From: Carcharhinus amblyrhynchos
Lineage: Eukaryota
Assembly (NCBI GenBank): GCA_965287045.1
Contig: OZ336871.1
Coordinates: 20,212,001-20,276,000, forward strand
DNA: 64,000 nt
Direction: 5' to 3'
Position numbers and translations under genes: made by a program. Of the stretch, positions 3,773-41,220 are shown piece after piece. Below the pieces are notes generated by a model. The model was not told the origin of the DNA, made no database searches, and worked only from the letters and a program-made list of their open reading frames with translations. Numbering within the stretch: the first letter of the stretch is position 1; every line of letters begins with the position of its first letter.

Positions 3773-3923
3773 TTGGCCGCTGAAGATACTGCCACTGGCC
3801 AGTTGGCCACACTGGAAGAATCAAAATTAACATCTGCACCCAGATCTTACTTGACATCTAAAGAACAAACCGCGGAGGAGGACATGGAGGAGACGGAGTC
3901 AGTCGTCACAGAGGGCAACACAG
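3773..3923 (+). CDS. ZNFX1: ZNFX1-like exon, acidic linker (LAAEDTATG...EGNT)
   Basis: ttttaag| acceptor and ACAG|gtaatg donor. Open frame ending in phase 1, matching the next exon. No recognisable sequence homology, so support is splice-based only. Confidence 0.65.
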
Positions 3924-6900
3924 GTAATGTAGAAAATTCTAATTCTACCAAAATCTTAATTCACATCAAGAACATAAGAAATAGGAGCAGGAGTAGGCCA
4001 TCTAGCCCTTCGAGTCTGCCCAGCCATTCAATAAGATCATGGCTGATCTGAAGTGGATTAGTTCCACTTTCCCGCCCTCTCCCCATAACGCTTAATTCCC
4101 TTATTGATCAGAAATCAATCTACCCGTGACTTAAACATATTCAACAAGGTAGCCTCCACCACTTCAATGGGCGGAGAATTCCAGAGATTCACCACCCTCT
4201 GAGATAAGAAGTTCCTCCTCAACTCTGTTCTAAACTGCAACCACCCCCCCCCCCTTATTTTGAGGCTGTGCCCTCTAGATCAAGATCTAAATAAATTCGA
4301 TGCATAGTTTCTGGGTGACTGTATCAAGGAATGTTTATCACATCCTGATTAATGTCAACTTATCGTTGGTCCCCATCAATAGCAAAAAGCAAAAGATTTT
4401 TCATTTTAGTTTCTGCATTGTTTTGCTTCATAATCAAGAAATACACTCCAGAGATGTGCGGGTTAGGTTGATTGGACATGCCTAAATTGCACCTTAACGG
4501 GGACTAGCAGAGGGTGTTATGGGGCTAGGGCCTGGGTGGGATTGTTGGTTCGATGGGCCAAATGGCTGCCTTTTGCACTGTAAGGATTCTACTTCCTGAT
4601 TTCTTTCAGCAAGCACCAGCGATCTGTCTGATGAGGAAGAGCAAACGGAGGATGAAAATGAACTGATTCATGTGACTGAGGAAGTTGAGCTGTTGCAAGC
4701 GGAGAGGATGATCGGGGATGATAACCTTCAGAAACAAGTGAAGAGTGCAACTGCCCGCCTGGCTGCAATCCGGCAAAAGTTTCTGGCCTTTCAGTCTGAT
4801 GACGATGAAGGCACTGCCAAATCGCAAGCTGGCAGTGAGGAGGAGGAGGAGGGTGGTGATGCTGAATGGAAGGTAATTTTTTAAAAAGTTTATTTCTGGG
4901 CTGCGGATACTATTGACAAAGGCCATTTATTGCTCAATCATAGTTCTCCCCCTCCAGAAGAAAAGGAATAACTTGTATTTATACAATATAGAATCCCTAC
5001 AATGCAGAAGGAGGCCATTCAGCCCATCAAGTTTGCACTGATTCTCCAAACGAACGTCTCACCCAGGCTCAGCCCTGTTACCATAACCCCACCATGGCTA
5101 ATCCATCTAACCTGCACATCCCGCGACACTAAGGGGCAATTTAACATGGTTAATCCACTTAACCAACGTATAAGATGATGAATGGGATGGATAGGATAGA
5201 GGTGGAGAGACTCTTCCCGCTCAGAAAGGACAGTAGGACTAGGGGGCACAGCCTCAAGATAAAGGGGGGGCAGTTTAGAACGGAGTTGAGGAAGAACTTC
5301 TTCACTCAAAGGGTGGTGAATCTCTGGAATTCTCTGCCCGTTGAAGTGGTGGAGGCTGCCTCGCTAAATATTTTTAAGACGCGTGTTGATGGGTTTTTGG
5401 TAAGAGAGGGGATTAAGGGTTATGGGGAGAGGGCGGGAAGGTGGAACTGAGCCACGACAGATCAGCCATGATCTTATTGAATGGCGGGGCAGGCTGTAGG
5501 GGCCAGATGGCCTACTCCTGCTCCTATTTCTTATGTTCTTATGTCTTTGGACTGCAAGAGGAAACCAGAGCACCCAGAGGAAACCCATGCAGACACGGGG
5601 AGAATATGCAAACTCTACACTGACAGTGACCCACGCCGGGAATTGAACCAGGCCCCTGGCGCTGTGAGGCAGCAGTGCTAACCCATGCCCCATCATGACC
5701 TCTAGATGTTCTATAGAATTTTACAGCTAATGAAGAATTGTGTTGAAATCTCTGTTACTCTGTGGGAAACATGGCAGCCAAATTTAGCAAAGTAAGGCCC
5801 AGAAAAGCCAATAATTTGTTTCAGTCATGTTGATTGAGGGATACTCATTGGCTAGCACAGTGCCAAGCTCCCCTGCTTTTCTTAAATGGTGTCGTGTGAT
5901 CAGACAGGGGCCTCTAAGCTGAGTGGCTGTACTTGGACAATGTAGCACTGCCGCAGTTCATGCTGGAGCTTTGCTTCTTGAACTGCTGTGGCCCATATGG
6001 GGCAGGAACAGCCACAACACAGTCCAGCAAGGACCACCAGCATTTTGACCATATCATGTAAAGAACTGGTGATACTTATTCGAGCCAGGATGGTGTACAA
6101 TTTAGAGGGGAACTTGGGGATTATTGGGTTACTATGGACCTGCTGCCCTTGCCTCCTAATTGGTGGAATTTTGGATTGTCCATGCTGTTAAAGATGTAAT
6201 TCAGGCTTCAGTTAGGGTTGGGAAGTTGGGACAATGTCAACATGTTGTTTGGTTGCCTCCTTGGGCTAACCCAAGAAGCATTGGGAGTATTGTGCAGCAC
6301 AGTGGTTTGCATTGCTGCCTCTCAGCGCCAGGGACTCGAGTTCAATGTCGGTTTGGGTGACTGTAGTTTCTCTTTCACCCTCCATTCCTATTCTTGCCTG
6401 AAGCTGCAGCACAGAACTCAGCTGTGTTGTATTTTTAGGGTGCTTTATGATGCTTCCATCTCTTTCCATCCTGCCGTGGGTTAACGTGGTCCCTATATGA
6501 GCCCTTGCTGTGCTTTCACTCCGTTATGTGAATGAGCCCCGGCCCAAAAAGCAAGTCAGTGTTCAAATCATGTTAGAAGGTCAGAGGTTTGTTGGGAAGA
6601 GAATCTTAGCCAATTATTGCAGAGGAATAGCCAGCTGGCAGAATTTTCCTCGGAATCTGTTTCATTGAAAATGCAACATGGCTGCATTACGAATGGAAAA
6701 CTTGCTGCAACAGGCTCAGCTGCACAGAATGGAACCAACTTTCAACACAGTTGGTCACCATACATAAAATGTACGTGACAGAAGCAGGCCATTGAGCTCA
6801 ACTGATCTACGCCAGTATTTATGTTGCTCATCCACCTCCTTCCATCCCTCTTCACCTCACTATCAAGATATTTCTTTCTTCGTCATGTACTCACCTCGCT

Positions 6901-9900
6901 TCCCCTTAAACACATCCAGGATGCTAATCACCCTAATTTCCTCTCGGTGGTAGTGAGTTCCATATTCTAACCAGGGTCTGGGTAAACAAATTTCTCCTGA
7001 GTGCCTATTGAATTTAGAAGTGAGTATCTTATGTTTGGCAGGTCTTGTAGCACAATGGGTAACATCCAGCTGCTTCTAAGCCAGAATACAACTTCCTTGG
7101 CCATCAAGCCCTGGTTCAAGTCCCACCCCAGGATTGATGGCCAACGAAGTTGCATTCATACATCGGGTTGAGTTTCAGTCCTTCCAAGACACTCAAGTAG
7201 CACATTAAGAGTGAGAGAAATTCCTGGTTAGCCATGTGATGGAAATGATTTTTGGGAGCCTCTTCCATCACCATCCATAGCTCCAGATCATAGCATGCAT
7301 GTAAATAAATGCATGTTGCCACAACAGCTCCCCGAGTGCACTGTAACATATATTTATAGCGCCTACTTTTGGATTCTCCCAGAAATGGAACATCTCCTTC
7401 AGAAAGAAAGATAAGGAATGATTGAATAAAACTGTTGCAGCATTTGCACGTTAAAAAGGGAATGAACTCACTATACAAGGCATTGAAGTCTGGTTTGGAG
7501 TTCAAAGATATTTTGAGGAGGCACTCTCCAAATCTGGGATTTACACCAGCTAGCATTCAGCAGCAATGATTGTGAAACTATTGTTTTAACCTTCAAAAAG
7601 TTTATAAAGTTTTAAATATCACAGGCACTCCAGTGAACATTGACCTTTTTTAATGCTGTTTGAAATATAACAGGGCAGACAAAATCACACTGTTCCCAGC
7701 TGTTCAGGGCTCAAGGTTTAGGGACCATAGATAGAAGATTAAATGTTAAGAGATTTCAAACCAACAGAATAGAAAACTTCTTTACCAGTGGTGCAGTGGG
7801 TGTGGCGACCAGGGGGCATTTGCAGTAACTTAATTGCCGTGTTAATGTAAGCCTACTTGTGACAGTAATAAAAATTAACTTTAAATAAACTGCTGCCTTA
7901 CAACATCAGGGACCCAGGTTCAATTCCATGGATGACTGTCTGTGTGGAGTTTGCACGTTCTCCTCATATCTGCATGGATTTCCTCCAGGTGCTCCAGTTT
8001 CCTCCCACAGTCCAAAGATGCGCAGGTTAGGTTGATTGGCCATGAAAAATTGCCCCTTAGTATCAGGGGGATGAGCAGGGTAAATATATGGGGCTATGGG
8101 GAAAGAGCCTGGGTGGGATTGTTACTGGTGTATGCTCGATGGGCTGAATGGCCACCTTCTGCACATTGGGGTTCTATGATCCTATATAAATTGAAAGGTT
8201 GTGGAATTCACTTCCAGGATTGGGGCTTGGGGCAGAAACATTTCAACATTCAGTGGTAGGTTGGACAAGTGGGTCAAGGTGAGAGAGGTGGAGGATAATG
8301 GGATCAGGGTGAATAAATGTGATTAGTGTTAATTGGTCACATGGAGAATAAAGACCAACACCAACTGGTTGGATTGAGTATCCTATTTCATGCAAAAGGC
8401 TGTGTATTTCCATGTGGGACAATGGCTTATCACTAACTTCTCAAGCTTAACAGGGATCTTTGTTCAAACTGGAGTGGAAAATCTGTTCCAGATGTGCACA
8501 GAGTCAGAATTATAGTTGTGTTTCAGTTAAAACTGCTCTGAAGCGGGTGCTAGCATCATATTGCACGACTAAATGCAATGAATTTTCTAGGTTCAATTTG
8601 ATGAGAAAAATACTAAAGAACTTCATGGTTTCCCCTCATCACTAGCTCTCACTGTAATGACTGTCTCTCTGCTGTTTTTATCAATAGAAGGTAACGAAAA
8701 GTAAGAAAAAGATGCGAGCAATGGTGAAGAAACAGCTGAAGTGCACTGACCACATGCCAGAAGATGAAGCCAACAACATAGATAACGTTTGGGAACTCGC
8801 ATTGCGCGATCGCTGGAAACTATACAGGTTTAATCACTCATTTACTCAGAATTCATTGTGCTTGGGGTGATCTGTAAATTGTATCCTTTTAGATCAAATA
8901 TTTATTTTCAAAAGAGAACATTTTGGTATCCTCTACCCTGCCACTACCCACTCACTCCTCCAACTGCTGCTGTCAAAATAAAACCTCCTAAGAAAATTTA
9001 ATGCATCCTGATAATCTCAACAACGTTGCTGGTATATTGTGGGTGGAATGAAATGTTTGTACAATCTGTCACTTTGTCCTTTGCCCCTCTCCACGTGCCT
9101 TTTATACTGTCTTGGTAGCTCGTGCTTTTTCATAGAATCATAGAGACCATACAGTGCAGAAAGAAGCCATTCAGCCCAAGGAGCCTATACTAGCAAAAAT
9201 CCCACCCAGGTCATGTCTGTGTAACCCCATGTATTTATGCTGCTAATCTCCCTGACACTAAGGTGCATTCGAGCATGGCCAATCAACCTAACCCACGCAT
9301 ATTTGGACTGTGGGAGAAACCCGGAGGAAACCCACGCAGACACAGGGAGAATGTGCAAACTGCACACAGACAGTTGCCCAAGGCCGGAATTGAATCCAGG
9401 TCCTTGGCACTGTGAGATAGCAGAGTTAGCCACTGTGCCACCCTCTTGAACGTAACTAATGGTAATCGTGGTCTTGCCTTACTTGCAAACATGCCTGCAC
9501 AAACGTTGGAACATGGTTGTACGTAGTGGCACCAGAAAACAATCTAGCAATTCACAAAAACAGGCTCATGTGCTGCACGTACTAAATGTATATCTGAGCT
9601 CCTTGTAATAAGGAAAATTCACAGGAGGTTCATTGCAAATGGTACCTTGCAATAATCTTTGAAAGATGTAACTTGTCTTCATATAACCCCCAAATTGAAT
9701 TTACATTGGTTCCTGTCCCACCAGCTAAAAGGTCGGGGGAACCCACACATGATCTCCTTGGCTATCCTGCAGCAGTTTAATGCTGAGAGTAGGATTAATT
9801 GCATTAAGGGGAGACCTCTGTCCCTAATCTCAGGTGGATATCCTATCTTAGGAGAGCTGCCAGCATTGCGCCCACTGTTGGTACCTCTGGCAGGCCTCTG

Positions 9901-12900
9901 AGGAACACAGCTAAGTCTGGGTTTGGCATTTCTGTAAGAGGAGTAGTTGGGGAGTGGGGGTGGTGGTGGTGGGGGGGGCGGGGGGAGTGGAAACAAGGTG
10001 AGAATGACCTCGGGGAGCGGTGCCTCTGGTGGGTCCAGAAGACCCCTAAAGAGGTCCCTGCCACTTGCCTGAAACCAGCCCACATAAATAAAGCTGCTAG
10101 TTTCCTTTGTGGAGTGGGACACCCTGTGTAGTGGACAGAATGTTGGTGGTAGTAGGATGAGGCCCTCAATAGATTCAAGGGCAGGTGACAGGCCTGACAC
10201 ATAGAGGTCAGGGCCGGGCAGGTAGGCAGAGGGAAAGCTGCCCACTGGATTTCAAGTGGCCTGTGCTTCAACTCTGTCAGCCAGGGAGCATCATATCCAG
10301 CCTCTCATTACAAAGATAATGCCAAAATGTCTCTAGCAATTCATTCCTTCTGGTTCTTAAATCAGTCAGTATTGGGTCCACTTCAGGAACATGAACTGGG
10401 GAAGAAACCCAAGTTGTGAGATGGGATTTTATAGCCTCGCTCGGGCAAGGCTGGGAATTCCCGCCCAAAGGCCAACAGGGAAGGTAGTAGAGTTCCGGCG
10501 GTGGTGGCATGAATGAAATCTGCTGCCCATTTGACACAATGCTTAATATTTGGTTCAATTCACTGTATTGGAACCGACATCAGGGGCTGCATATAACAGA
10601 CAGCCAATCCATTATTGCCCTTTCATAACTCCATTGGTGCTCAGTTGTTACGTATGTTCTAGACAAAAATCAATAGGCTTGTGGATGCTAAGGGAATTGA
10701 TGATATGGGGATAGTGTAGGAGAGTGAAGTTGATGTAAACCATTGACCCTGATTGTGTTGGATGGTAGAGAGGCTCAAGGGTTGAATGGCCTATTTCTGA
10801 TATTCCAATGATAGCTAGTAAGTGCCGTTATGACTCCAAAGGTTTATGGGCTGATCTTTTCATGTGTTTAAAATAATGAAGGGATGCATAATCAATGCAA
10901 ATAAATATCATGTGGCTAATTAAGCATCCCAATTAGTGTCTGGGCCAGAAGCCTGCCTATCTCCGAATTGATTAGAGAGAGTTGGGCAGACAGTGGGATC
11001 TCCACCCTGCACCCTTCTTCTCAATCATATGGCTCTGCCATTTCCCCTCCCTCCCCCCTCCCCACCAGTCTTGGATTTCAGCTCTGGGGCAAGGTGGAAT
11101 GGGGCAGGCGGGAGCATTAATCCCACTTTGCCGTCTGTCAATGAGTTGTCCAGGTGCCGGTGTAATATGGTGATTTTTATTGCAGGCTGTGGTTGTCAAA
11201 GTACCAAGTCGAAAGCAGGCGTCAAATGTTAACATATGAGGAGCAATATCAGAGAATTGTCAACCGTCTTGTTGAGCTGAGAAATCAAGAGGAAATGATA
11301 GTCCTTCGACAATCTAAAATAATGGGGATGACCACAACAGGTATACACAGCTACTTCTAACAGTGATAGCCATGATGTGAAGATGCTGGCATTGGATCGG
11401 GGTGGGCACAGTAAGAAGTCTCGCAACACCAGGTTAAAGTCCAACAGGTTTACTTGGTATCACGAGCTTTTGGAGCACTGCTCCGAATGTGACTCACCTA
11501 AAGTAAATGTTTATTTATTAGTCACAGGTAAGACTTGCATTAACACCGCAATGAAGTTACTGTGAAATTCCCCTAGTCATCGCAGTGTGGCGTCTATTTG
11601 GGTCAATGCACCTAACCAGCACCTCTTTCTGAATGTGGGAGGAAACCCACACAGACATGGGGAGAATGTGCAAACTCTACACAGACAGTGACCCAAGCTG
11701 GGAGTCGAACCTGGATCCCTGGCACTGTGAAGCAGCAATGCTAAACACTCTGTGACCCCAATGAAGGAGCAGCACTCCGAAAGCCTGTGATACCAAACAA
11801 ACCTGTTGAACTTTAACCTGGTGTTGTGAGACTTCTTACTTTAACAGTTACGGCATATTATTTCTCACATTTCCAATCTTACATATGCTACAATCAGAAA
11901 ATGTAAATTCCATTTATGATATTTGCTTTGCACAGTAAGAAAAACAAATCTATAATTCTTGTATATTTTAATATCTGATAGCTAGTTCAACAGCATTTCA
12001 TTTTCTTTCATCAACCCTATATAAAATTCCAATTGTTCCATTGAAGCATTGTGTGTACAAAAATTCCCCACTTTAGTTCTCCTGCAATACCTTTACTGAA
12101 GTAGGAGTGGTTTAGACAGCCAGGAAATAATCTACACATGATGTGGAGATGCCAACATTGGACTCAGATAAGCAGAGTAAGAAATCTCATAACACCAGGT
12201 TAACGTCCAACAGATCAATCTGTTGGACTTCATAACCTAATGTTGTGAGATTTCTTACTATAATCTACAGGGAGGAATTGGAGAGAATGACAGAAATTTG
12301 CTTTCCAATGTATTAATAGACTTTTTCTGAAATGTATAAACAAATTATTTTGACATGGTATCTTATGCATTACTTCACAAGGTTACATGAACATACTTAC
12401 TTTGACTCCCATATGAGCTTCAAGAGTGTACCTGAATGCTACCTCATCACCACTTCTCTCAACTCTTCCGCTGTTGCTAAACCATCAAACTGCTTATCCG
12501 ACATCCAATACTGGATGAGCAGAAATTTCCTTCAATTAAGTACTGGGAAAACTGATACCATTGTTTCAATCCTCAGTCTGAGATCATACACCAACTGATT
12601 CAAGAACAGCTTCTTCCCTGCTGCCATCAGACTTCTGGATGGACCTACCTCATTTAAGTTGATCTTTCTCTACACCCTAGCTATGACTATGATATTACAT
12701 TGTGCACCCTCTCCTTTCCTTCTCCATGTACGGTATACTTTGTACAGCACGCAAAAAACAATATTTTTCACTGTATCCCAATACAAATGACAATAATAAA
12801 TCAAATTAAAAGTCTGTGACTAAAGCTGTCCACTCACAACTTTGGTGCCACATTTGACTCCAAGATGAGCTTATGACATTTTATGCCATCACGAAGACCA

Positions 12901-15900
12901 TCTCCATAATCCTGCCTCAGCTCATCTGAGATTGAATCTCTCATTCTTCCCTTTGTTACCTCGAGACTAGACTATTCCAATGTACTCGTAGCTGCTCTCC
13001 CATACTCTACCCTCTATAAGTTTATAGTCACGCAAAACATCTGTTGCCCATGCGGGCCTTAACTCACATCAAGTGCCTTTCAGTTGTACTTGCCGTCCTC
13101 TGTTGGCTCCCCGTCAGACAACATCTTGATTTTTAAAGCTCCCATCCTTGTTTTCAAATCCCTCCATGACTTTGCCTGCCCCATCTCTGAATCTTCTCCA
13201 GTCCCACCACCTTCCCAAGATATGTATGCTTCCCTAATTCCAGCCTCTTGAACATTCTTAATTTTAACAGCTTTCAGTAGCTTGGACCCCAAGTTCTGAA
13301 TATCATCCTGGCACCTCACCGCCTCGCTACCTCTTCCTTTTAAGACACGCCTTAAACACTACTCTTTGACCAAGCTTTATTTGGCCTGATTGAGGGGGAT
13401 TCTCTGGAGAGTGATGCTGATGGCAACCTCCCCACCCTCCGCCCTAGGTACCCAATGTGGAGGAAGAGAGCAAGCGATGGGAAACTCTGAGAGCAGTGGG
13501 ATCAGAAGATCCCACCATGGACCAATGGAGGACCACCTCAACCCTGACAAAACACACTGCAGGGACGGGGTGGGGTCGAAAAACCTGCTCAATATCTCTT
13601 TATGTAGCTCTGTCATGTTGCGCTTTATCAGTCTCCTGTGAAGCGTGTTCTATTTTGTTAAAGGTGCTGTGTTCATATAAGTTGCTGTTGCAGGTTTATT
13701 CATTACACATGTTGAAGTGTGTGCACAATTATCTTCCTTAGGTGCGGCAAAGTATAGAACTGTCCTGCAGGACATTCAGCCAAAGATTGTGATTGTAGAA
13801 GAGGCGGCTGAAGTGCTAGAGGCTCACATAATCACCACCCTTAGCTCAGCCTGCGAGCATCTCATTTTAATAGGTGATCATCAACAGGTAAGAATTATTG
13901 CAGAAAAATCAGAATGGGGCTCATTTTGGTAAAGAGTTGGTAACCCATTTACATCTCTGCTATTTTCCAACCTCAATCCATGCCAATACATTAGTCCCAA
14001 CCCCATGAGGTCTCATTTTGTTTAATAACGTCATGTGTGGCACCTTATAGAATAGTTTTTGAAAGTGCAAATACAGTACATCCGCAGGTTCCCTATTATC
14101 TACCCTCCTAGTTATATGCTCAAAAATCTCTAAGTACTTTGTTAAACAGCATTACTTTTTCATAAATCTGTGTTGTTTCTGCCTAAGCAAATTATGAATT
14201 TTCATATAAATTTAAGGGCAGCAATTCAGAAGTGTGTTCCCATTCCTTCCAATTTTCCCTTCGCTGCCACTCAGATGATTCAAGTATTCCAACAGGTATA
14301 GTTACTGCAAGAAGACGTTTGACTATATTGACATGGTATTATCCTTGGTTCATTGGGACCATGCTCCCCAAGGAGTTCTAAATTTAGAGGTTCAAATCCC
14401 AGGCCAGAGATTTGAGCCTATATTCAAGGCCAATTCTCCAGTGTGGTACAAAAGGAGTGCTGCACTGTGGGACGTGCTGGCTTCCGGATGCGATGGTAGA
14501 TGATGGTCCAATCTGCTTTCTCAACTGGATGTAAAAGATGGTATTACTTCAAAGAAGAGCAGAGGAATCTATTCCGGTGTCCTTCACAGTATTTATCCCA
14601 CAGCCAACATCACTAAAAACATTATCTGGTCATTTGGGAGTTTGCTCTAACTAGCTACCAAATTTCTTCACACTATGACAGTGACTACGATTTACAAGTA
14701 CTTCATTAGCCGTAGAATACTTTTGGGGTGCCCCGAATTCATGAAACATGTAATGCAGATTTTTTTTTTTGTTCTAGTTTGTACCTGTTCACCTTCAGTG
14801 AGGCAAACCTGAATGGCGCTCTGTGCCCTGATTAAATTAATTTCCTGTTCAGTTTTGAAGATTGGCAAAGGAGAAGTCGCTCGTGCCAATTCACCCGATA
14901 ATCAGTCCCAGCTTACCAAGATCTTGGCAACCTCACTGTGTTATCGCTTTCTAATTTCAGCTCCGCCCAAGCGCAACTGTGTACGAACTTGCGAAAGATT
15001 TCAACCTGGAAGTTTCTTTGTTCGAGCGGCTGATAAACATGAAAGTGGAGTTTGTCCGGCTTGATTATCAAGTGAGTTTCCCTATCAACTTTTTATTTTC
15101 TATTTATTCATGGGATGTGGGCCTTCCTGGCTGGGCCAGCATTTATTGCCCATTCCTGAGGGTGATTAAGAGTCTGTAGGCCAGATCAGGTAAGGCGGCT
15201 GATTTCCTTCCCTAAAGGGCATTAGTGAACCAGATGGGTCTTTGTGACAATTGACAATGGTTTCATGGTCAACTTTCAGATTTTTTTTATTGAATTTAAA
15301 TTTCACCATTAACTGTGTTGGGATTTGACCCCAGGTCCTCAGAGCATTACTCTGGGTCTCTGGATTACTAATCCAGCGACAATACCACTATGCTACTGCC
15401 TCCCCATGGATTCCTGAGAGTCTTATTCATCATTCCATGTCTGCTTCCCTTGAAGTGAAACTACCCTGTTGTTACACCTTTTCTCCTCCCTGCTTTTATT
15501 TCTATCCTTTCTTGCTGAGCTTAAGTTCACTACCTGGAGGGGAGGAAGGAGGGAGAATAGATGTCAGAAAATGAATGGCTTTTTTTTTGGGCCTCTTCCA
15601 CTTATTTGGGATATAAGTCAGAAGATCTGAAATGGAGGCGCCATGTGCCATTGTCTAAATGTTGAAGTTTCCAATATATGTCGTCATTTATCAGAGTCAG
15701 CGGTCTGGGATTTTTCTTGAATCTTTAAAATCCATTTAGCCTTTTGCCCAAATCTTTGGTCATATGACCTAATACAGCCACCTGTTGCTTCACACCCTTT
15801 CCGAGAAGCTTGACCTTTGAAAAGTTAAGCTGGGGTGGAGGGGAAGAAGATTGGTCCAGTGGGAGTTGGTAGGTAGGGGAGAAATTGCACTGGGGTTTTG

Positions 15901-18900
15901 TTGGGGGGGGGGGTGAGGTAGAGGGGAAATTGTGAGGGGGGGTTGATGGGGAGAGAATTTCAATCTGGGGATAGGGAAGATGGCATGGGGTGGGAGCAAT
16001 GGGTGTGGAAGGGCTATTGTGCAAGAATTGTAAGATATAAAGAATACCATGAAAGAACATCTTCAAAGCGGGGTCTGGTTTTACAAAAGAGCTAGGAGCA
16101 GGAATAGGCAATTCAGCCCCACAACCCTATTCAATATGACCATGGCCGATCTTGCCTCTGCCTGAACTTCATTTTCCTGCCATTCCACATCATCCTTCAA
16201 CCCCTAACTAAATAAAAATCTGGCTGTCTCCTCAAATTTACTCAATCTCCCAGCATCCAGTGAATTCCATAGATTCACGACCCTTTGAGAAAGTAGTTTC
16301 CCCTCATCTCTATTTAAAATCTGCTACCCCTTATCCTAAAACTATGACCTCTTGTTTTAAATTGCCCCACAAGAGGAAGCATCGTCTGTACGTCTACTTT
16401 GTCAATATCTATTATCATCTTATGTTCCGCAATTAGTTCTCCTTCCATTGTTCTAAAGTCTAGAGAATATAGGCCTAATCTCACTTTTCATCTCTGGAAT
16501 CAATCTAGTGGATCTTCTCTGAACTGCCTCTGATACCACTACATCCTTCCTCAAATAAGGGGCCTAAAACTGTACTTTTTCTAAAGTTAACTCAGTTTTA
16601 TGTTTGAAATTCAGAAATAGAGGGAGTGATACTCCCATCCCACTGCGCTAATTGTCTAGCGCAGCAGGTTGGGGTTGGCCAGGGTATTGGGGGGGTGGGG
16701 GGGGGGGAGGTGGTGTGGGGTCAGAGCTGGGTAGGATATGGGGGTTGGGGGGGAATGGGCGGTCAGGGCGGAGGGACAGCAGTTTGGGGCTCCTGGGCTG
16801 GCTAACGATTGAGCTGGCCTGCAGTCGGGAGGCTGACAGTTTGGGGCCACTGCGCACATGCAGACGCCCGCTGGTTTCAGCCTTTCCAGCATGAATAGGC
16901 CCTGCCTCCTGAAACATAATGACATTCACGCTGATGGCGTCAGGAGTGCAGAGAGTGTGAGAGATTCTTTCTGAAATCCCACTGAAAAAAAAACGGTGAA
17001 TTACTCCAGTTTTACCGTGAATTTGACACTTAGAATTTTTGTGGGTGAACTCTGACCATAGAAAATAAACTGTGATTGTTTTTGGTGTCTGAATGCTTAA
17101 GTGATATTGCTTATCGCAACTGTTTGAGCGCTGTGGTCTAAGGCAATTGATGACATTAATGTCAGTTCTGACATTTAAAATCCATCGCTTAGCTATCATT
17201 TAAAATGATGATGTTCAATAATGGCTAAATAAGTAGATTCTTAATTCCAGATATTTTTCATTGAATTCAAGTTCCACCATCTGCTGTGGTGGGATTTGAA
17301 CCCAGGTCCCCAGAACATTAGCTGAGTTTCTGGATTAATTATCTACCGATAGTACAACTAAGCCATCACCTCCTCTACCCTCCCATGGTGGGATTTGTCC
17401 CCAGAGGATTAACTAGGACCTCCAGCTTGCCAGTCTAGTAACATCACCAAAACACCACCATCTCCCTTACACTAATAGGGCATTATATTGAAATTCAAGT
17501 ACTCTCAGTGAGAGAGAGAGATTCACCAGCGAACGCAATTCCTGATTGCTGTCCCGTCAAAGCTGACAGATGTATATGTGATGAATTGCAGAGATCAGGC
17601 AGAGGAGTAATGCCAGATCTTTGTAAAAAAACTGGGTACCTAGGCGTAGTGTCATGATCAGGAGAGGGAAGGTACGGAGTCAAAAGAAAGGGGTAGGCAG
17701 GGATTGTCAGTCACAAAGTGTCCTTGTTGCAAAAAATTACATTTTTGACTTATCAGAAAATATATTTGAAAGTCCATCAGGCCAAAACATTATCTCAGTT
17801 TCTTTTTCCACGTAGGTTTCCTGACATATTGATTTTTCCAGCAATTTCTGTTTGTATTGCAGATATAAATGTTTTGCAGAGACCTCTTGTGCGGCAGTCT
17901 AAAACAAGAGGTCATAGCTTTAGGGTAACAGGTAGCAGATTTAAAACAGATGAGGAGAAACTACTTTTCCCAGAGGGAGTGAATCTATGGAATTCACTGG
18001 ATGCCGGGACATTGAATATCACTATAAAGACTCGCATTCTAATCAGTATTCTGTAAACTGTGTGTGCCTTTATATGCTCTGTTTGAGACCAGAACTCTCC
18101 ACTCACCTGATGAAGGGGCAAACCCCGAAAGCTTGTGGGTTTACTATCAAATAAACTTGTTGGACTTTAACCTGGTGTTGTGAGGCTTCTTACTGTGTTT
18201 ACCCCAGTCCAACGCTGGCATCTTCACATCGTGTATTGCAGATTTCCAGAGCTTCAGCTATTTGCTTTTGAGTAGATTTTTTTCCCCTCATTTTTGCAGC
18301 AAGATTTGTGAACTAGCCCCAACTAAATTGAGAATTGATATTTTTTGTATTGAAGATTTAATTGATCCATTCAATAGAAAGCAAACCTAATGATCAATCG
18401 ACTTCTATCTAGTGAGGAAGAGAATTGTGTCTAAGTTCCTCAGGCTGACTCTGGCTAAGGTAGGCGTTCCATTCGTAGACATGCAGGGTAGAATAGGTGT
18501 AGGGTGATGCGGCGGCGCGGGCTCGTTGGGCCGAAGGGCCTGTTTCCCGTGCTGGGTTGTTCTTTGTTCTTTGTTCTTTGTATCCTTGTCAAATATTGCC
18601 TGACCAAAAATATGGTGAAAATTTCCTTTGAAAATATTGTGCCCTGAAATTTTCTTTACTGTTCACAACTGTATATTTTGTTCTGGTAATATTTCTTAGA
18701 TTGTCAAGACTTTTGTGTACCAGTTGTTTTTGGGTGCTTTTTAGGTGTGTAACTCTGTTAATATGTCAGTGCGTATGTATTGTTTTATTTGAAGCAATAT
18801 GCAGAAGTCTCACTGCTATACCTTTCTCTACCTTGTTCAGCATCGAATGCGCCCTGAAATTGCAAAACTGATAACTCCTCACATCTATGACAAGTTGGAA

Positions 18901-21900
18901 AATGTGGAGTCTGTGAAACAGTACGAAAACATCAAGGTAACTTTTACTCTAAACCCTTGAAGCATGTGGTGTCATACTGAGACCCCTGCCCCAGAGGATA
19001 GATGACTGTCGAATCATAGGATCCCTACAGTGTAGAAGGTGACCATTTAGCCCATCAATTCCAAACTCAGGTGACTGTGCAAACTCCATACATTCTCCCC
19101 ATGTCTGCATGGGTTTTTCCGAGTGCTCTGGTTTCCTCTCACGGTTCAAAGATGTGCGGGTTAGGTGGATTGGCCATGCTAAATTGCCTGTTAGTGTCAG
19201 GGTAAGTAGGTAGGATAAATGCATGGGGTTATGGGGCTAGGGTCTGGATGGGATTGTGGTTGGTGCAGACTTGAAGGGCCGAATGGCCTCCTTCTGCGCC
19301 GTAGGGATTCTATGATCCAGGGCGGGATCAAAGTTCAGGGCTTAAATAAAATTAACCAATGTGTCTGGTCAGTGTATGACTGTGCAGGTCTGCAACACAC
19401 TCAGACAGCTCCGTAGTGGTTGTGTCCCCAAGGGAGCATGTTGGAACCGCCAGCCCGCAATTTCCCTTCTCTCAACGCTCAGTCTTTCAAGAACGCATGG
19501 CCATCCAATATCATATCAAAATAACAAGCAAACTTGCACCAACTTCAGGTGTGCCCCAAATGTAAAATTCACTCCTATGTTTTCTACAGTCACTGTTGAT
19601 AGTCTAGTCCTTAGACTACCAAGGCACATTAAAGAGGTGTTAGACACTGGTTTAATCATAATCACACTATAAACACAATTGAGCTGTGGCTCAATTCGAA
19701 GCACTCTAATCTAGGGACCTTGAGCAGAAAATCTCAGCAGATGCAGTACTGAGGGAGTGTCACACTGCCAAGTGTCATCTTTAAGTTGAAATGAATCCAG
19801 ACTCTGGATTCGATCTAAATTTTCTTTTGTCCCAGTGTAAACCCTCCCCTGCCCACCCCCCTATCCCCCGCTGCGCCATTTGTTCTGCTATGAACACAGT
19901 CTGCTATCTTACCTTTCTGCCACTATCAGCATCTACTTCACCCCTTAGCTGTGTCATTAACAGTTCCTTTGTTACAAGTAAAATGCTGGAATCTGAAACA
20001 GAAACAGAAAATGCTGGAAAATCTCAGCAGGTCTGACAGCATTTGTGAAGGGAGAATAGAGCCAAACATTTCGAGTCTGGATGACCCTTTGGCAGAGCAT
20101 CTCTGATGAAGGGTCATCCAGACTCGAAAATTTGTCTCTATTCTCTCTCCACAGATGCTGTCAGACCAGCTGAGATTTTCCAACAGTTCCCCTGTCTTGT
20201 GTCCAAAACATGTTTGTCCAATCTCATAGAGCTCCCTGACCTTCTACTTTGTTCCACCTGCTCCACCCCTTCTTAACCAGTATAAACACATCACATTCTT
20301 CCCTTTAGCTCTGAAAAGAGTTATACAGACTCAAAATATTTAACTCTGTTTCTGTCTCCACAGATGCTGCCAGACCAGCTGAGTTTTTCCTGCATTTTCT
20401 GTGTTTATGTCAGGTTTCCAGCATCTGCAGTACTTTACCTTTTTATCAATAATTAATGATCCGCAAATATTGTGGATTTTGTAACACGCTTTCGTGGGTT
20501 TCATTGCTCATCCCCAGTTACCTTTGAACTGACTGGTTGCTAGGCCATTTCAGTGGGAAGTGAAGGGTTAATACATTCCACGTGCTCATCTCAATGTTGT
20601 GAGGGTTCCCGCCTCTACTATCCTGAGGGGCAGTGAATGCCAGACTATCACTCTCTCTCGGTAAAAAAGGTTTTCCTCAAAGCCCCTGTAAGTCTCCTGC
20701 CCCTTATGTTAAATATATGCCCCCTTATTATTGACCTTGCTTCTAAGGGGAAAGCTTCCTATCAACATTTATCCATGCCCCTCATAATTTTGTGCACCAA
20801 GATTAGCCTTCTCTCTGCTCCAAGGAGAATAACCCCAGCCCAACCAGCCTCTCTTCATAGCTGGCAGACTCCAGCCCAGTCAACACCCTGGTGAATCTCC
20901 TTTGTACCCTTTTCTAGTGCAAACACATCCTTCCCATAGTGTGGCACACAATACTGCAGCCCTAGGCTCCCTTCTGTGCCTCAACTCATAAAGGCAAGTA
21001 CCCCATATGCCTTTTTAACCCCTACCCACCCCGCTTCCTTCAGGGGCATTGGACATGAACACCAAGGTCTCTCTGGTCCTCTGTGCTTCCTATTGTTCAT
21101 TGCTTGCCTTGTTACTCCTCCAAAGAGCTAATCAACTTGTCTCACTCCACTATTTCTCCATATCCCTGCAAATCTTTCTCTTTCAAGTACATATGGCAAG
21201 ATGAGGGGAAACAGTGGCGTAGTGTTAATGTCACCAAACTAGTAATCCAGAGGTTCAGGCCAATGCTCTGGAGACAAGAGTTCACATCCCACCAAGGCAG
21301 CTGGTAGAATTTAAATTCAATCAATAATCATGGAATATCTTCAGTGTAGAAGGAAGCCTATCAAGTCTGCACCTACTCCCCAACAGACTGTCTTACCCAG
21401 GTCCTATCTCTGTAACCCCAGGAATTTACCCCATTGATCCACTTAACTTGCACATCTTTGGATTGTGTGAGGAAACTGGAGCACCCAAAGAAACCCATGC
21501 AGACACAAGGAGAATGTGCAAATTCCACACAGACAGTCACCCAAGGCTGGAATTGAACCTAGATGCCTGGCGCTGTGAGGCAACAGTGCTAACCACTCTG
21601 CCACCATGCCACCCTGGATTTGAACATCTTTTTATTAATGGTGACCATGAAACTATTATCGATTTGTTATAAACACCCAGCTGGTTCGTTCATGTCCTTT
21701 AGGGAAGGAAATCTGCCCCCGTTACCTGGTCTGGCCTACACGTGACCCACAAAAAGTTGTGGTTGGCTCTCTGAAATGATGTGGCAAGCCACTCGAGTTC
21801 AAGGGCAATTGGGAATGTGAAATGAAAACTGATCTTGTCCAGCTCCCGCAAGAGGAAAAGATCATTTTTAAAAGTTTAATTCCTTTTGAATTTGCTTCCA

Positions 21901-24900
21901 CCATGCCTTCAGGTAGCTCATTCCAAATCATTACAACTTGTGATGTAAAAATAATTTTTCACATCTCTCCTCGAGTTCTTCTGTCAAATTCTGGCTAGTG
22001 GCCTCCCTGCCAGTCTAAACACTTACTCTATATCTATTCTATTGAAACCATTTGCACTTTCAACAACAATTAAATTTTTCCTTAACCTTCTCCATTCTCT
22101 TGGGCAGAATCTTGTGCTCTCACTATTGGCACGGTGGCACGAAGAGCATATAATTAAGTGGGGTAATGGCTCATCAGAACCCCACCGCCACCTTGCCTCA
22201 GCCAGAATTATGTTCTGGGTGGGTAGGCCCAGGGTCGAGCTACCCTCCTGTTGCCTGTTGATGCCCTTATGTGGCTAATTAATGACCCTTTAAGATATTC
22301 ATCCTTCAGCTGCTGGTATTTAACAGTGGGCCTGTCACCATGGGTGCACAACAGATGAAACCGTGTGGCCAGTTTGTCGGTGGGGGCCGGGGCAATCAGA
22401 GGTACTCCGTGCCTGAGAAAGGAACACAACATCATGGGTGGGGTGCTGCCAAGAAGCTCGCTCAGTGTGCCATTGCTGCCAGTCCCTAGAAACTCTTCCC
22501 CTGCAACAGCACTCCCTTCCCCCTCATGTTACTTACCTGCGGCCTGGCAAGCTCCACGATCCTGGGGCTCTGGTAGATGGCCTTTCCTGTAGTGGTGCCG
22601 CTAAGCACAAGAACTGCTCTTGATTGGCCAGCATCTCTCAGTACACAAGACTTCTGCCCTCGGGGTCTTGATTCCAGGGGAAGGCCTGCGGCTGGCCTTG
22701 TTGCTGCCTGATTGGCTTGTGGCTTGGTGGATCCTCCCAAAGGGAGGCAATGCAGATGTCCAGCAAGACTACAAGACATCTGGCAACAAGATTCTGCCCC
22801 CTCATCTCCTTTTTATTCCCCCCTCAAGTTACACACCATTGTGACTTGTACATTCATCACCATTCTTTCATAGTCACTTGGTCAAAATGCTGGACCTCCC
22901 TCCTTATAACTGTAACAAGGGTGGCTCAAGAAAGTGGCTCACCTTTTAAAGGACAATTTGAGATGGGCAATAAACGCTGGCCTTGACAGTGACATCCACA
23001 TCCTATGAATGAGTAAAAGATACAACATGAACTCCCTCATCCGTAGTACTATTCTAACAAATCTCCTTTCTAAGGCCTTGATACTTGTCTGATGTAGACT
23101 GTGGACTGATGAAGTTAGCCTTAACATAGAGTCCCTACAGTGCAGAAGGAGGCCATTCGGCCCATCGAGTCTCTACCAACCACAATCCCACCCAGGCCCT
23201 ACACCCACATATTTACACTACTAGTCACCTGACACTAAGTGGCAACTTAGCATGGCCAATCAAACTAAACTGCACATCTTTGGAGTGTGGGAGGAAATTG
23301 GAGCACCTGGAGGAAACCCATGTAGACACGGAGAGAATGTGTATTCTCTGCACAGATGGTGACCCAAGCTGGGAATTGAACCCAGGTCCCTGGTGCTGTG
23401 AGGCAGCAATGCTAACCACTATGCCATTATCTCCCAATCCTAAATTTTAAACTCCCGTTTTAAGTATTAACAACCCTTTCTCTCCCCTTTTAATTAGGGA
23501 ATCTCGACGAATCTCTACTTCATTGATCATGAGCAGCTGGAGAATATGACCAAGGAAGGAAAAAGCTTTCACAACGAACACGAAGCACTTTTTGTGAAAG
23601 CCCTTTGCAATTATCTGATCCAGCAGGGGTACAAGCCATCGCAGATTACCATTCTGACCACCTACTCGGGACAGTTGCTTTACTTGAGGAAGATAATGCC
23701 AAAAAACCAATTTAATGGCGTTCGGGTCTGTGTGGTGGACAAGTATCAAGGGGAAGAGAGTGACATAGTGATCCTGTCGCTCGTTCGAAGCAATGCGCAG
23801 GGCGTGGTGGGGTTTTTGCGGATACCAAACCGCATCTGCGTGGCCCTGTCTCGGGCAAAGAAAGGCTTGTACTGCATCGGCAACATGAAAATGCTATCGA
23901 GAAAAGTCCCGCTGTGGAGGGCGATAGTTGACTGGCTATGCAGTAATGGCAAGATGGGTCCCGCGTTGAGTTTGTGCTGCCAGAACCATCCAAGGAATGG
24001 TACTTCGGTGTCAACAGCTGAGGATTTTGTTCAGGTTCCTGCGGGAGGGTGCTCCTTGCCTTGTACCATACGGCTGGAGTGTGGCCATACTTGCGGCTCT
24101 CCTTGCCATCCCTCCAACCTGGACCATAAGCAGTTTAACGAGTGTAACGTCAAGGTGACCAAAGTCGTCCCCCAGTGTGGTCACAAACAACAGGTGCCCT
24201 GCTCCTCTTCATTGGAAAGATTCGTCTGCCAGGAGCCCTGCCAGAAAACCTTGGATTGTGGGCACCGGTGCGCGCGCCGCTGTGGGGAGACCTGCACCAA
24301 GAAATGCCCGGCAAAGGTCAGGGTCACGTTGAGGTGTGGTCATGAGAGGCAGACGCTGTGCCACCTGCAGAAGGAGAGTGAGATTGCTAATGGCAGGAAT
24401 TTGCTGTGCAACCAGCTGTGCAGGGCACAGCTGGCGTGCGGCCATTCGTGCACGGCTGCCTGCTACGACTGTGCCGGCGGGCGGCTTCACCTGCCCTGCA
24501 GCTCTCCGTGCGAGCGGACGTTGATCTGCACTCACCCGTGCGACGCGTCCTGCTCCAAGGAGTGCCCTCCTTGCGGCCGGGCCTGCGAGAACCGCTGCTC
24601 GCATGACAAGTGCCCGAAGCTGTGCGGCGAGGCCTGCGAGCCCTGCCAGCAGCCCTGCGAGTGGGCCTGCCCGCACTACTGCTGCACCAGGCTGTGCCAC
24701 CAGCCTTGCAACCGGAAGCGCTGCAACCAGCCGTGCCCCCAGACGCTCGAGTGTGGGCACCCGTGCATCGGCCTGTGCGGGGAGCTGTGCCCCAACAAGT
24801 GCCGTGTGTGCCACGAGGATGAAGTCACTGAGATATTCTTCGGAAAGGAGGACGAAGCTCAAACCAAGTTTGTGCAGCTGGAAGATTGCGGTCACATCTT

Positions 24901-25594
24901 TGCGGTTCACGGATTCGATGACTGGATGCAGCAGTCGGAGCAAGATGGGCCTGAGCCGAAGCTCAGCCTCTGCCCCAAGTGCTCAACACCCATTCGAAGG
25001 AGTGGCCGGTACGGGAACGCCATCAAGGGCACCCTAGCTAAAATAGAGAAAGCTAAAGCAAAGATCGTGGGAAATGAGGAGGAGTTGAAAGGCTTGAAGA
25101 AAAGTCTGGAGCAAGTTCTTGAAACGCAGGTGGAATTGTCCAACTATTATTTCACCGAGGTCCAGGACTTGCACTTCCAGCTACAAGGGTCCCCCACAAA
25201 TATGCACACACTGGCCGTCCTGGGACAAAAGGTTGTCTTACTTTCCAAGATCGCTCAGTTGAAGACCAGAGGAAGTGAGCTGTTGGAAGAACAGAAAGCC
25301 AAGATCCAGAGTAAGACTGAGTGGCAGGTGAAGTGGATCTTGAGAAGCAGAGTTCAGTTCACTGAACAGGAGATTTCTAGCATTGAGCGAGAAATATCAA
25401 TGCTAACCCATCTGACTGACATATACTTAATACAGAACACGATGCTAAAGCAAAGGAAGGCGTTTGACTTAGCGTCACAGTTAACTTTCAATGAGGTTCT
25501 ACACACACTAGAAGATGGCAAAGCAGATTACGAAGAGAAATGGTTGCAAGAAAGTGTCGATAGATTGAAAAGGAAATATCCTTTAACAAGCTAA
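3773..25594 (+). CDS. ZNFX1: ZNFX1-like helicase gene, 3' portion (8 coding exons; 5' exons lie upstream of the window)
   Basis: join(3773..3923,4610..4872,8688..8827,11186..11340,13742..13887,14961..15071,18841..18936,23498..25594). All introns are GT-AG with matching phases. The spliced translation follows ZNFX1: [79 protein letters not shown]1 fingers. Could be a paralog rather than the ortholog. Confidence 0.93.
3968..4280 (-). mobile_element. CR1 LINE 3' fragment
   Basis: Tail aagaacataagaaataggagcaggag; closely similar to 48765-49100. Confidence 0.8.
4610..4872 (+). CDS. ZNFX1: ZNFX1-like exon (...[21 protein letters not shown]...AEWK)
   Basis: ttctttcag| acceptor and AAG|gtaatt donor. 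Resembles ZNFX1 LIEIAEEADLIQADRVI...GEWQ. Confidence 0.9.
5166..5540 (+). mobile_element. Young CR1 LINE 3' fragment nested in a minus-strand SINE (4988-5690)
   Basis: ORF 5175..5450 is the CR1 ORF2 C-terminus (RTRGHSLK...[14 protein letters not shown]). Near-identical to the 3' end of 38046-41220. Confidence 0.9.
8688..8827 (+). CDS. ZNFX1: ZNFX1-like exon ([17 protein letters not shown]...[16 protein letters not shown])
   Basis: Not in the ORF track; translated by hand. Tandem acceptor tag|aag| and AG|gtttaa donor. Resembles ZNFX1 KKKMKKRVKDEL...DVWQLDLSSRWQLYR. Confidence 0.9.
9131..9443 (-). mobile_element. tRNA-derived V-SINE (HE1-like) with CR1-type tail; representative of more than 20 copies
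   Basis: A/B-box head (gtggcacagtgg...ggattcaattcc), V-core gtttgcacattctccc...ctcccacagtccaaa, tail (gattctat)n. Other copies at about 7890, 19013, 21340, 23126, 30885, 34475, 41892, 43285, 45002, 53738, 55865, 59568, 63326 and 63655. Confidence 0.85.
11186..11340 (+). CDS. ZNFX1: ZNFX1-like exon ([21 protein letters not shown]...IMGMTTT)
   Basis: Not in the ORF track; translated by hand. tgcag| acceptor and ACAG|gtatac donor. Resembles ZNFX1 LWLQLYQADTRRKILSYERQY...VVGMTTT. Confidence 0.92.
11371..11840. mobile_element. Non-autonomous Penelope-like inverted-repeat element interrupted by a SINE (about 11500-11759)
   Basis: Arms 11410-11484 and 11766-11840 are inverted copies. Shares the terminus catgatgtg(g/a)agatg and aacctggtgttgtgagacttcttact with other copies. 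Confidence 0.7.
12137..12259. mobile_element. Miniature Penelope-like hairpin element with 10-bp TSD
   Basis: TSD ataatctaca at 12127-12136 and 12260-12269, plus an internal inverted repeat. Confidence 0.75.
12440..13385 (+). mobile_element. Decayed L2-type LINE 3' fragment with a Rex fragment nested at about 12580-12810
   Basis: [21 protein letters not shown] motif, then SRLDYSN-like (tcgagactagactattccaat) and tail cttaaacactactctttgaccaagc. Confidence 0.7.
13742..13887 (+). CDS. ZNFX1: ZNFX1-like exon, helicase motifs II/III (GAAKYR...EEAAE...GDHQQ)
   Basis: ttag| acceptor and CAG|gtaaga donor. Walker B-like IVEEAAE and GDHQQ motifs. Confidence 0.95.
14388..14760 (+). mobile_element. Ancient Deu-type SINE (SacSINE1/AmnSINE-like), decayed
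   Basis: ggttcaaatccc B box, followed by ggatgtaaaagat...gaagagcag...atttatccc core recalled from DeuSINEs. Related fragments at about 5750-5890, 19700-19800 and 55365-55500. Confidence 0.55.
14961..15071 (+). CDS. ZNFX1: ZNFX1-like exon ([24 protein letters not shown]...LDYQ)
   Basis: tttcag| acceptor and CAA|gtgagt donor. 111 nt, phase 0/0. Confidence 0.95.
17865..18231 (+). mobile_element. Chimeric insertion: CR1 fragment plus Penelope-like terminal repeat within one 12-bp TSD
   Basis: TSD tgtattgcagat at 17853-17864 and 18232-18243. 5' part encodes SKTRGHSF...VNLWNSL; 3' part matches 46940-47140. Confidence 0.75.
18103..18138 (+). ncRNA. Minimal type I hammerhead ribozyme motif (Penelope-like element)
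   Basis: TCAC-CTGATGA-A-GGGG CAAA CCCC-GAAA-GCTT-GTGG: both conserved core boxes, 4-bp stem II, palindromic AAGCTT stem III, stem I CAC/GTG. Confidence 0.75.
18841..18936 (+). CDS. ZNFX1: ZNFX1-like exon ([32 protein letters not shown])
   Basis: ttcag| acceptor and AAG|gtaact donor. 96 nt; carries the (Q)HRM motif. Confidence 0.95.
19978..20445. mobile_element. Second Penelope-like family: inverted plus direct terminal repeats with a hammerhead core at 20103-20128
   Basis: About 20007-20098 is inverted against about 20101-20186. Core ctgatga-agggtc atcca gactc-gaaa. Degenerate relatives at about 2370-2520, 30296-30435, 41398-41540, 49520-49760 and 55742-55850. Confidence 0.65.
23498..25594 (+). 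CDS. ZNFX1: ZNFX1-like terminal exon: helicase C-lobe, NF-X1 zinc-finger array, RING-like domain, helical region; no RZ finger
   Basis: aattag|GGA ATC TCG is in frame with ORF 23546..25594. Contains [18 protein letters not shown], Cys/His repeats and LEDCGHIF...[11 protein letters not shown] stop at 25592-25594. Confidence 0.95.
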   Translation, partial: GISTNLYFIDHEQLENMTKEGKSFHNEHEALFVKALCNYLIQQGYKPSQITILTTYSGQLLYLRKIMPKNQFNGVRVCVVDKYQGEESDIVILSLVRSNAQGVVGFLRIPNRICVALSRAKKGLYCIGNMKMLSRKVPLWRAIVDWLCSNGKMGPALSLCCQNHPRNGTSVSTAEDFVQVPAGGCSLPCTIRLECGHTCGSPCHPSNLDHKQFNECNVKVTKVVPQCGHKQQVPCSSSLERFVCQEPCQKTLDCGHRCARRCGETCTKKCPAKVRVTLRCGHERQTLCHLQKESEIANGRNLLCNQLCRAQLACGHSCTAACYDCAGGRLHLPCSSPCERTLICTHPCDASCSKECPPCGRACENRCSHDKCPKLCGEACEPCQQPCEWACPHYCCTRLCHQPCNRKRCNQPCPQTLECGHPCIGLCGELCPNKCRVCHEDEVTEIFFGKEDEAQTKFVQLEDCGHIFAVHGFDDWMQQSEQDGPEPKLSLCPKCSTPIRRSGRYGNAIKGTLAKIEKAKAKIVGNEEELKGLKKSLEQVLETQVELSNYYFTEVQDLHFQLQGSPTNMHTLAVLGQKVVLLSKIAQLKTRGSELLEEQKAKIQSKTEWQVKWILRSRVQFTEQEISSIEREISMLTHLTDIYLIQNTMLKQRKAFDLASQLTFNEVLHTLEDGKADYEEKWLQESVDRLKRKYPLTS

Positions 25595-25772
25595 GCTTTC
25601 TGAGTCTTGCTATAAAACACAGCGATGCATTTGGCGACTGTTCATTGGCGAGTGCATAAAATACAATGTTGGAATTGGTAAAACAAAAATGATCACTTTT
25701 GCAAAGGAGTAGCTTCAGAAATGATGAATATGCTGTAAAATTACTCAGGATTTGTACTTCAATTTAACTTTC

Positions 25773-41000: not shown

Positions 41001-41220
41001 CATACTCACGCCCCCTACTCCCTCTATTATTGGGACATCCTCGGCCTCTTCCCTTACCTGTACCCTCTCCTTAACTTTAGACCTCGTAACATCACCTACC
41101 CTCGCACCCTCCCCCCCCCTAATTAGTTTAAAGCCCTGCCTACTGTCCTCTTTACTCGATTCGCCAGCACTCTGGTCCCAGCACGGTTCAGACCAACCCC
41201 ATCCCAGTGTAGGCCAGCTA
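38046..41220 (-). mobile_element. CR1 LINE, ~3.2 kb, near-complete ORF2 (APE endonuclease + RT), disabled
   Basis: ORF 40629..41228 (YLNARS, ITETWL) and ORF 38318..40723 (YRPP, GDFN, SDH, SGVPQGSVLGP, FAGDTK). Frameshifts near 40635 and 38325. Confidence 0.95.

Follow-up and report, generated by a model that had tools for sequence, protein, structure and literature searches.

A locus in the shark Carcharhinus amblyrhynchos raises the question of what a ZNFX1 protein can do when its gene ends just before the RZ finger, one of the two modules through which human ZNFX1 transfers ubiquitin. The stretch analysed here (the window) comprises 64,000 nucleotides of contig OZ336871.1, and a ZNFX1 paralogue runs along its forward strand. 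This gene is an intact, conserved second ZNFX1, and there is about an even chance, going by the sequence comparisons below, that its product acts as a long-lived, largely ligase-silent RNA sensor docking a ubiquitin-conjugating enzyme (E2). Both ubiquitin-transfer routes look degraded, because the RZ finger is missing and the linchpin residue of the Z-RING is replaced, whereas the residues for helicase function, RNA binding and E2 docking have been retained.

ZNFX1 has two ligase routes that share one E2 site, F1575 (10.1101/2025.09.05.674436, 10.1101/2025.10.14.682297). The Z-RING/Miz domain transfers ubiquitin directly and makes K63 chains, with Q1623 as its linchpin (10.1101/2025.09.05.674436, 10.1101/2025.10.14.682297), and the RZ finger (C1860, H1881) transthiolates, making K48 chains that drive turnover (10.1101/2025.09.05.674436). 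The mutations Q1623A and C1860A together abolish the activity of human ZNFX1 in vitro (10.1101/2025.10.14.682297), and a defect of either type alone strongly lowers auto-ubiquitination in cells (10.1101/2025.09.05.674436, 10.1101/2025.10.14.682297). How the two routes work together was disputed in 2025-26: parallel K63 and K48 routes are set against a relay across the dimer, and RNA that is trapped against RNA that is ubiquitinated (10.1101/2025.09.05.674436, 10.1101/2025.10.14.682297, PMC13270118, PMC13710534). An ARM-ARM dimer has been reported (PMC13710534), cooperation from Z-RING to RZ between protomers has been proposed (10.1101/2025.10.14.682297, PMC13710534), and PMC13710534 and PMC13270118 both cite the split-site, trans-acting model of Grabarczyk et al. 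2025; trans-autoubiquitination has been demonstrated for human ZNFX1 (10.1101/2025.10.14.682297).

The end of the gene and the missing RZ finger

The initial annotation placed the end of the reading frame just before the RZ finger, and this is where it lies: the last-exon frame spans 23498-25594 on the forward strand (698 codons) and closes with TAA at 25592-25594 (list of open reading frames and translation). A spliced model built with the Mustelus asterias orthologue as guide, covering the window with 100 kb upstream and 50 kb downstream on the same contig, has 18 exons, GT-AG introns throughout and a product of 2132 residues with a single stop, with 1845 identities to the 2157-residue guide. 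Exons 1-10 lie upstream of the window, reaching ∼30.4 kb before its start, and 1053 of the 2132 codons fall inside it. The protein matches PF13087 (E 1e-32), its best match in the PDB is 9q9z (E 1.8e-88), and the assembly contains the 3' end of the gene only once. The features within the window are as follows.

3773..3923 (+), coding exon 11 of 18, part of insertion 1C and of a duplicated block (spliced model)
4610..4872 (+), coding exon 12, carrying the second copy of the autoinhibitory plug helix (spliced model, insertion 1C comparison)
8688..8827 (+), coding exon 13 (spliced model)
11186..11340 (+), coding exon 14 (spliced model)
13742..13887 (+), coding exon 15, Walker B (EEAA) and start of motif III (spliced model, alignment)
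14961..15071 (+), coding exon 16, RNA-stacking Tyr (human Y1043) (spliced model, alignment)
18841..18936 (+), coding exon 17 (spliced model)
23498..25594 (+), last coding exon, with second RecA lobe, zinc-finger stalk, Z-RING/Miz, helical bundle and stop (reading frame, Pfam, PDB match, spliced model)
24137..24142 (+), junction of a 25-codon in-frame deletion, position approximate (alignment to orthologues)
24839..24841 (+), Phe equivalent to human F1575 (E2 docking), kept (translation, alignment)
24887..24982 (+), Z-RING zinc ligands equivalent to human C1591, H1593, C1619 and C1622, all kept (translation, alignment)
24983..24985 (+), linchpin (human Q1623), here Ser (translation, alignment)
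25592..25594 (+), stop, after the last helix of the bundle and before the ubiquitin-binding helix of RZ (translation, alignment, structure model)
25595..25720 (+), possible eroded RZ-coding sequence, not above chance (three scorings against controls)

The catalytic Cys, the general-base His and the ubiquitin-binding helix of the RZ finger all lack a counterpart in the protein. After the last Z-RING Cys there are 203 residues, in line with elasmobranch orthologues (184-209) and short of the chimaera orthologue (283), shark full-length ZNFX1 (293) and orangutan ZNFX1 (296). The protein ends three codons before its Mustelus orthologue. When its last 284 residues are modelled from a 77-row alignment (mean pLDDT 93), the bundle closes with a complete helix at residues 266-279, so that the stop falls at a domain edge; a single-sequence prediction reached a pLDDT of 39. 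A structure search with the good C-terminal model returned no match at E<=0.001. The sole AATAAA within 25591-28000 is at 26575.

No RZ finger was found in the surrounding DNA either, as had been noted from the letters of the window. The RZ family PF20173 gives 4 matches among 44 scored genome candidates, none of them close to the window, and a tblastn comparison of five RZ tails with 214 kb recovers, among the matches listed, only the pre-RZ helix at E<1. None of the seven GT dinucleotides in 25461-25600 has a donor-like context when judged by eye, which agrees with the earlier remark that no convincing donor lies near the end. The full-length paralogue that the initial annotation proposed to look for was found on contig C16, where an 835-codon frame with the same exon start runs through a complete RZ finger; because its RZ lies in the open frame of the counterpart exon, no separate RZ exon is expected at the window gene. 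A downstream RZ exon was dropped as a candidate, there being no RZ match near the locus.

A relic of the RZ finger downstream of the stop likewise gained no support. The motif FIGEC, which had been pointed out as a faint possible relic, can indeed be read in another frame at 25641-25655. With four frameshifts the stretch 25593-25720 can be aligned, in colinear order, to the RZ helix, its HW pair, the Cys-x-Asn-Gly segment and the position of the catalytic Cys, a longer resemblance than FIGEC alone, but three scorings put none of this above chance. With a local profile, 58 of 400 genomic controls and 30 of 300 shuffled ones scored as high; with an anchored profile, 17 of 150 genomic and 14 of 150 shuffled controls did so, and at the DNA level 171/3000 and 315/3000. 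Several registers fit by eye and none is claimed.

Age of the loss and constraint on the paralogue

The top matches in a search with the C-terminal region are 11 elasmobranch clusters without PF20173, two of them skate; the orthologue of the chimaera Callorhinchus milii, which has PF20173, ranks after the ninth. Cluster members add five species, with the RZ motif present in none of 12 elasmobranch members and in all three chimaera members. Besides the window species, RZ-less orthologues are thus found in 16 named elasmobranch species (sharks, rays and skates), all as gene models rather than sequenced proteins, the Rhinoraja model having a divergent tail; publicly the orthologues are annotated as 'ZNFX1-like'. 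No paper on this paralogue or on RZ loss in sharks was found in a literature search that covered mainly openly accessible papers. The orthologues P0001, P0002, P0004, P0005 and P0007, from sharks and rays, end in a Cys. Lipidation at this conserved residue was considered and dropped, the Cys being absent from the window protein and several rays.

The clade formed by these proteins is taken here as 13 members, namely 12 elasmobranch rows (window protein included) and the chimaera. A fast maximum-likelihood tree was built for the part of the protein that precedes RZ, using 46 of 47 rows (the starfish row was too short). It supports the clade with an SH-aLRT of 100 and groups the 12 elasmobranch rows together at 99, leaving the chimaera as their sister. 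In another fast tree, of 37 rows and 982 columns, the sister of the clade is a group that unites shark full-length genes with those of bony vertebrates (100/99), a placement on which the 46-row tree takes no side, and the claim is limited to 'older than the chimaera split'. Within that limit, the sequence trees show that the ZNFX1 duplication predates the split of chimaeras from sharks and rays. The simplest reading of the loss is a single event on the elasmobranch stem, in the ancestor of sharks and rays, because the chimaera keeps an RZ finger that elasmobranchs lack. The chimaera finger retains the catalytic Cys and the zinc ligands, with a Cys at the position of the general-base His. Since the chimaera protein combines this change with a Ser linchpin, the comparison suggests that changes in the ligase preceded the loss of RZ, and the chimaera RZ is possibly an intermediate state.

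The paralogue is under purifying selection and not decaying, judging from its substitutions. On the branch of the window species, changes fall at 5 of 492 conserved sites against 103 of 923 others (Fisher p=1.3e-14), a site-class test used in place of dN/dS. All 13 clade members keep K625, E1007, F1210, R1216, R1223, Y1043 and F1575, as well as the four Z-RING zinc ligands (numbering follows an orangutan ZNFX1 row that matches published human positions). The window protein retains the equivalents of Walker A K625, E1006/E1007 of the EEAA motif, motif VI R1223, the residues F1210, R1216 and Y1043, and stalk C1264 and C1292; at the position of human Y450 it has Phe. Distances within the clade are 1.5-3.4 times those of the full-length gene, depending on the domain (six pairs among four species).

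These results bear out the initial annotation in describing a maintained RZ-less ZNFX1, with an intact frame, purifying selection and RZ-less orthologues in 16 species. The same species speak against a stop created by assembly error, and the site-class test shows constraint where the annotation had allowed for a dN/dS near 1. Its statement that helicase motifs, splice sites and the RING-like domain are intact over about 1,050 codons holds for the 1053 codons and their GT-AG introns, the one departure from intactness being the stalk, which is missing one zinc finger. The 25-residue deletion removes this finger in frame; it is present in Mustelus and most orthologues, and the Pristiophorus gene model has a partial gap at the same place.

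What remains of the ligase

The initial annotation went further and took loss of the RZ finger alone to stop ubiquitin transfer, a step that does not stand. An RZ-less ZNFX1 is not the same as a ligase-dead one, because human Z-RING/Miz constructs without RZ are active in vitro, above full-length C1860A (10.1101/2025.09.05.674436), and C. elegans ZNFX1, which naturally lacks RZ, traps RNA in granules (10.1101/2025.10.14.682297). The ligase-poor conclusion regains support from a feature absent from that annotation, the replaced linchpin. Within the clade this residue is Ser in 10 of 13 rows, Leu in 2 and Glu in 1, the chimaera being among those with Ser. Outside the clade it is Arg, Gln or Lys in 33 of 34 aligned rows, with a third paralogue as the exception. 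In a broader set, 251 of 269 fetched proteins match the Z-RING pattern and 233 of these have Arg, Gln, Lys or Asn as linchpin; the remaining 18 comprise 12 from this clade, 5 from the lineage of the third paralogue and 1 from an insect. With the docking Phe invariant and the linchpin varying among Ser, Leu and Glu, selection would seem to have been kept on E2 docking and relaxed on activation of the ubiquitin-charged E2 (E2∼Ub). In RNF38, E2∼Ub binds at 59.5 µM with a Ser linchpin, 60.4 with Ala, 29.2 with Gln and 2.5 with Arg, and activity is minimal in every tested variant except Arg, Lys and Met, Glu being the worst (PMC12326332).

A number of observations weigh against a silent ligase that works beside the full-length enzyme. 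The RNF38 Gln variant is near-inactive too (PMC12326332), and the RNF38 result transfers poorly because human ZNFX1 works with Gln. FANCL and TRIM32 are studied RINGs with a Ser linchpin, and a weak linchpin can mean selectivity for UBE2N, as in TRIM8, rather than silence (PMC13769585). Nor is Ser unique to the clade: it is the linchpin in 14 of the 119 motif-bearing proteins among 146 distant representatives, and in caecilian and Pogona paralogues it occurs together with an RZ whose Cys/His pair is intact. Relaxation is weakest in the Z-RING and bundle (B/A 1.5, against 2.3-3.4 for ARM, helicase and stalk), which would fit retained activity no less than retained docking. A shared dimer is made less likely by the ARM domain, which is only 25-28% identical to full-length ZNFX1 (∼27% to the full-length paralogue); its interface positions 226, 230, 268 and 272 keep their character, and 11 of the 13 members have a polar residue at position 219. 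Because of this low identity and the polar interface position, co-assembly with full-length ZNFX1 appears to be the weakest step. A complex prediction for the ARM domains of the two Mustelus paralogues, run without alignments, was uninformative, with a score of 0.01.

That the protein is instead a RING-only ligase is a serious though minority possibility. The Z-RING would then build K63-type chains directly, perhaps only with a closed-state E2 such as UBE2N, and the protein would be a degradation-resistant RNA trap, a naturally occurring counterpart of the human C1860A mutant that parallels C. elegans ZNFX1. The active human RZ-less constructs, the K63 chains that are made and the partly antiviral C1860A mutant, which keeps about half of the delay in virus growth (∼2.5 h vs 5 h), all favour such a ligase (10.1101/2025.09.05.674436), as do the RZ-less C. 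elegans protein (10.1101/2025.10.14.682297), the existence of Ser-linchpin ligases (PMC13769585), and the invariant F1575 and zinc ligands in a strongly constrained Z-RING. It fits less well with a linchpin that drifts to Ser, Glu or Leu, given the poor showing of Glu in RNF38 (PMC12326332), or with the finding that Q1623A hits the RZ-less human construct hardest (10.1101/2025.09.05.674436). Human ZNFX1 moreover prefers UBE2D, with detectable UBE2E activity, and human truncations that keep the Z-RING without RZ lead to infection susceptibility (10.1101/2025.10.14.682297).

That the protein works independently of ubiquitin as an RNA helicase or a scaffold of granules (handling germline small RNAs or mRNA, for instance), with the Z-RING as a structural element or a sensor of ubiquitin chains, is quite improbable. 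In its favour are the apparent degradation of both catalytic routes alongside invariant helicase residues, the faster evolution of the clade compared with the full-length gene, the enlarged insertion 1C of some sharks, and the trapping of RNA in granules by C. elegans ZNFX1 without an RZ (10.1101/2025.10.14.682297); against it, the E2-contact Phe is invariant in 13 of 13 members. Artefact or decay, whether as an assembly-error stop, an overlooked RZ exon or a pseudogene, is very improbable indeed. The stalk deletion is private to the window copy, which also ends slightly before Mustelus and is known from the assembly alone, but the orthologues in 16 other species lack RZ too, no RZ match lies near the locus, 18 exons are intact on a strongly constrained lineage, and the predicted bundle completes its last helix before the stop.

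Other copies and a place in the ZNFX1 pathway

Three ZNFX1-like last exons are present in the genome: that of the window gene, one on C16 and a distant one on C2, the contig of the window. The four PF20173 matches belong to the C16 gene, the distant C2 gene and two sites on C21 (near 11.56 Mb and 18.08 Mb); the C21 sites have short frames, one with an internal stop, and are perhaps RNF213-like genes, which is a guess. The third paralogue, near 146.96 Mb on the reverse strand of C2, retains an RZ-like finger with its Cys, but its general base is Gln, its linchpin is Asp, and the positions of F1210/R1216 carry Leu/His. Its relatives include caecilian and lizard ZNFX1-like proteins with a Ser linchpin and an RZ. 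The window and third paralogues appear to share a contig in four named sharks as well, which fits orthology.

Insertion 1C is longest (434-440 residues) in the window species, Mustelus, Scyliorhinus and Carcharodon, shorter in Chiloscyllium (365) and shortest elsewhere (∼280-305). Two exons have apparently been duplicated as a block (window 3773-4872 and two exons upstream of the window), giving two acidic plug helices, and the second helix may tighten autoinhibition. A scan for interferon elements, not used in the argument, found one strict and one loose site 14-25 kb upstream of the first coding exon. At 26260-28578, 700-3000 bases past the stop, lie broken frames in which Pfam finds no family in the three frames tested and which, by eye, resemble remains of an LTR retrotransposon. 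Frames of 803 and 204 codons at 38318-41243 on the reverse strand resemble a CR1-type LINE, and CR1-like 3' fragments occur at 32768-33271, 53893-54342 and 61419-61952.

The window protein shares with human ZNFX1 the order of ARM, helicase with 1B/1C, zinc-finger stalk, Z-RING and helical bundle, as well as the tested ATP, RNA and E2-docking residues. Unlike human ZNFX1, it lacks RZ, has a Ser linchpin, two plug helices and one stalk finger fewer, and coexists with a full-length paralogue. The patient truncations E1727fs and V1788fs and the mutant C1860A likewise have a Z-RING without RZ activity; they are deleterious or engineered alleles of a single gene, whereas the shark copy has the whole bundle and is under purifying selection. 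The chimaera orthologue (P0010), in the same clade and with the same Ser linchpin, differs by keeping RZ. LGP2, beside RIG-I and MDA5, is a paralogue that keeps the sensing part and has dropped the output module, and TRIM pseudoligases are reportedly paralogues that keep a scaffold part without the output module; both are functional analogies only, their domains being unrelated to the window protein. C. elegans ZNFX-1 is also a natural RZ-less ZNFX1 that retains its Miz/Z-RING (10.1101/2025.10.14.682297), and the system is therefore not of an undescribed kind, contrary to the earlier suggestion. The losses are independent, and what is new is the retention in a vertebrate, next to the full enzyme, of a ZNFX1 paralogue in which one route is gone and the other changed.

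As a largely silent sensor, the window protein would bind ATP and single-stranded RNA under the gating of its plug helices, dimerise through ARM and bind E2 through the Z-RING, as its conserved residues suggest. Lacking RZ, it should form no ubiquitin thioester, no K48 self-degradation chains and no RZ-dependent RNA adducts, and the direct RING route is probably weak with a Ser linchpin. Escape from K48-driven self-destruction could make it a stable RNA-clustering partner or buffer of full-length ZNFX1. More speculatively, it might tune the full-length protein on shared RNA by holding E2∼Ub, or alternatively serve as a substrate in trans or hand E2∼Ub to the RZ of a neighbour. It is unlikely, though worth stating, that the two-site ligase of ZNFX1 has in this way been split across genes, with a silent subunit that co-assembles on RNA and feeds or withholds E2∼Ub in trans.

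If so, the split-ligase paralogue would be an LGP2-like regulator of the ZNFX1 pathway that sets the balance between RNA trapping and self-destruction, and the chimaera copy would preserve a half-way stage of the split. One shark genome holds three versions of the protein, one complete, one lacking RZ and altered at the linchpin, and one whose RZ is degraded, to which the chimaera adds an intermediate, and this natural series makes trans-complementation and the function of RZ-less ZNFX1 testable with evolved proteins. Human RZ-less alleles lead to susceptibility to infection, and a lineage that keeps such a protein under selection is thus informative.

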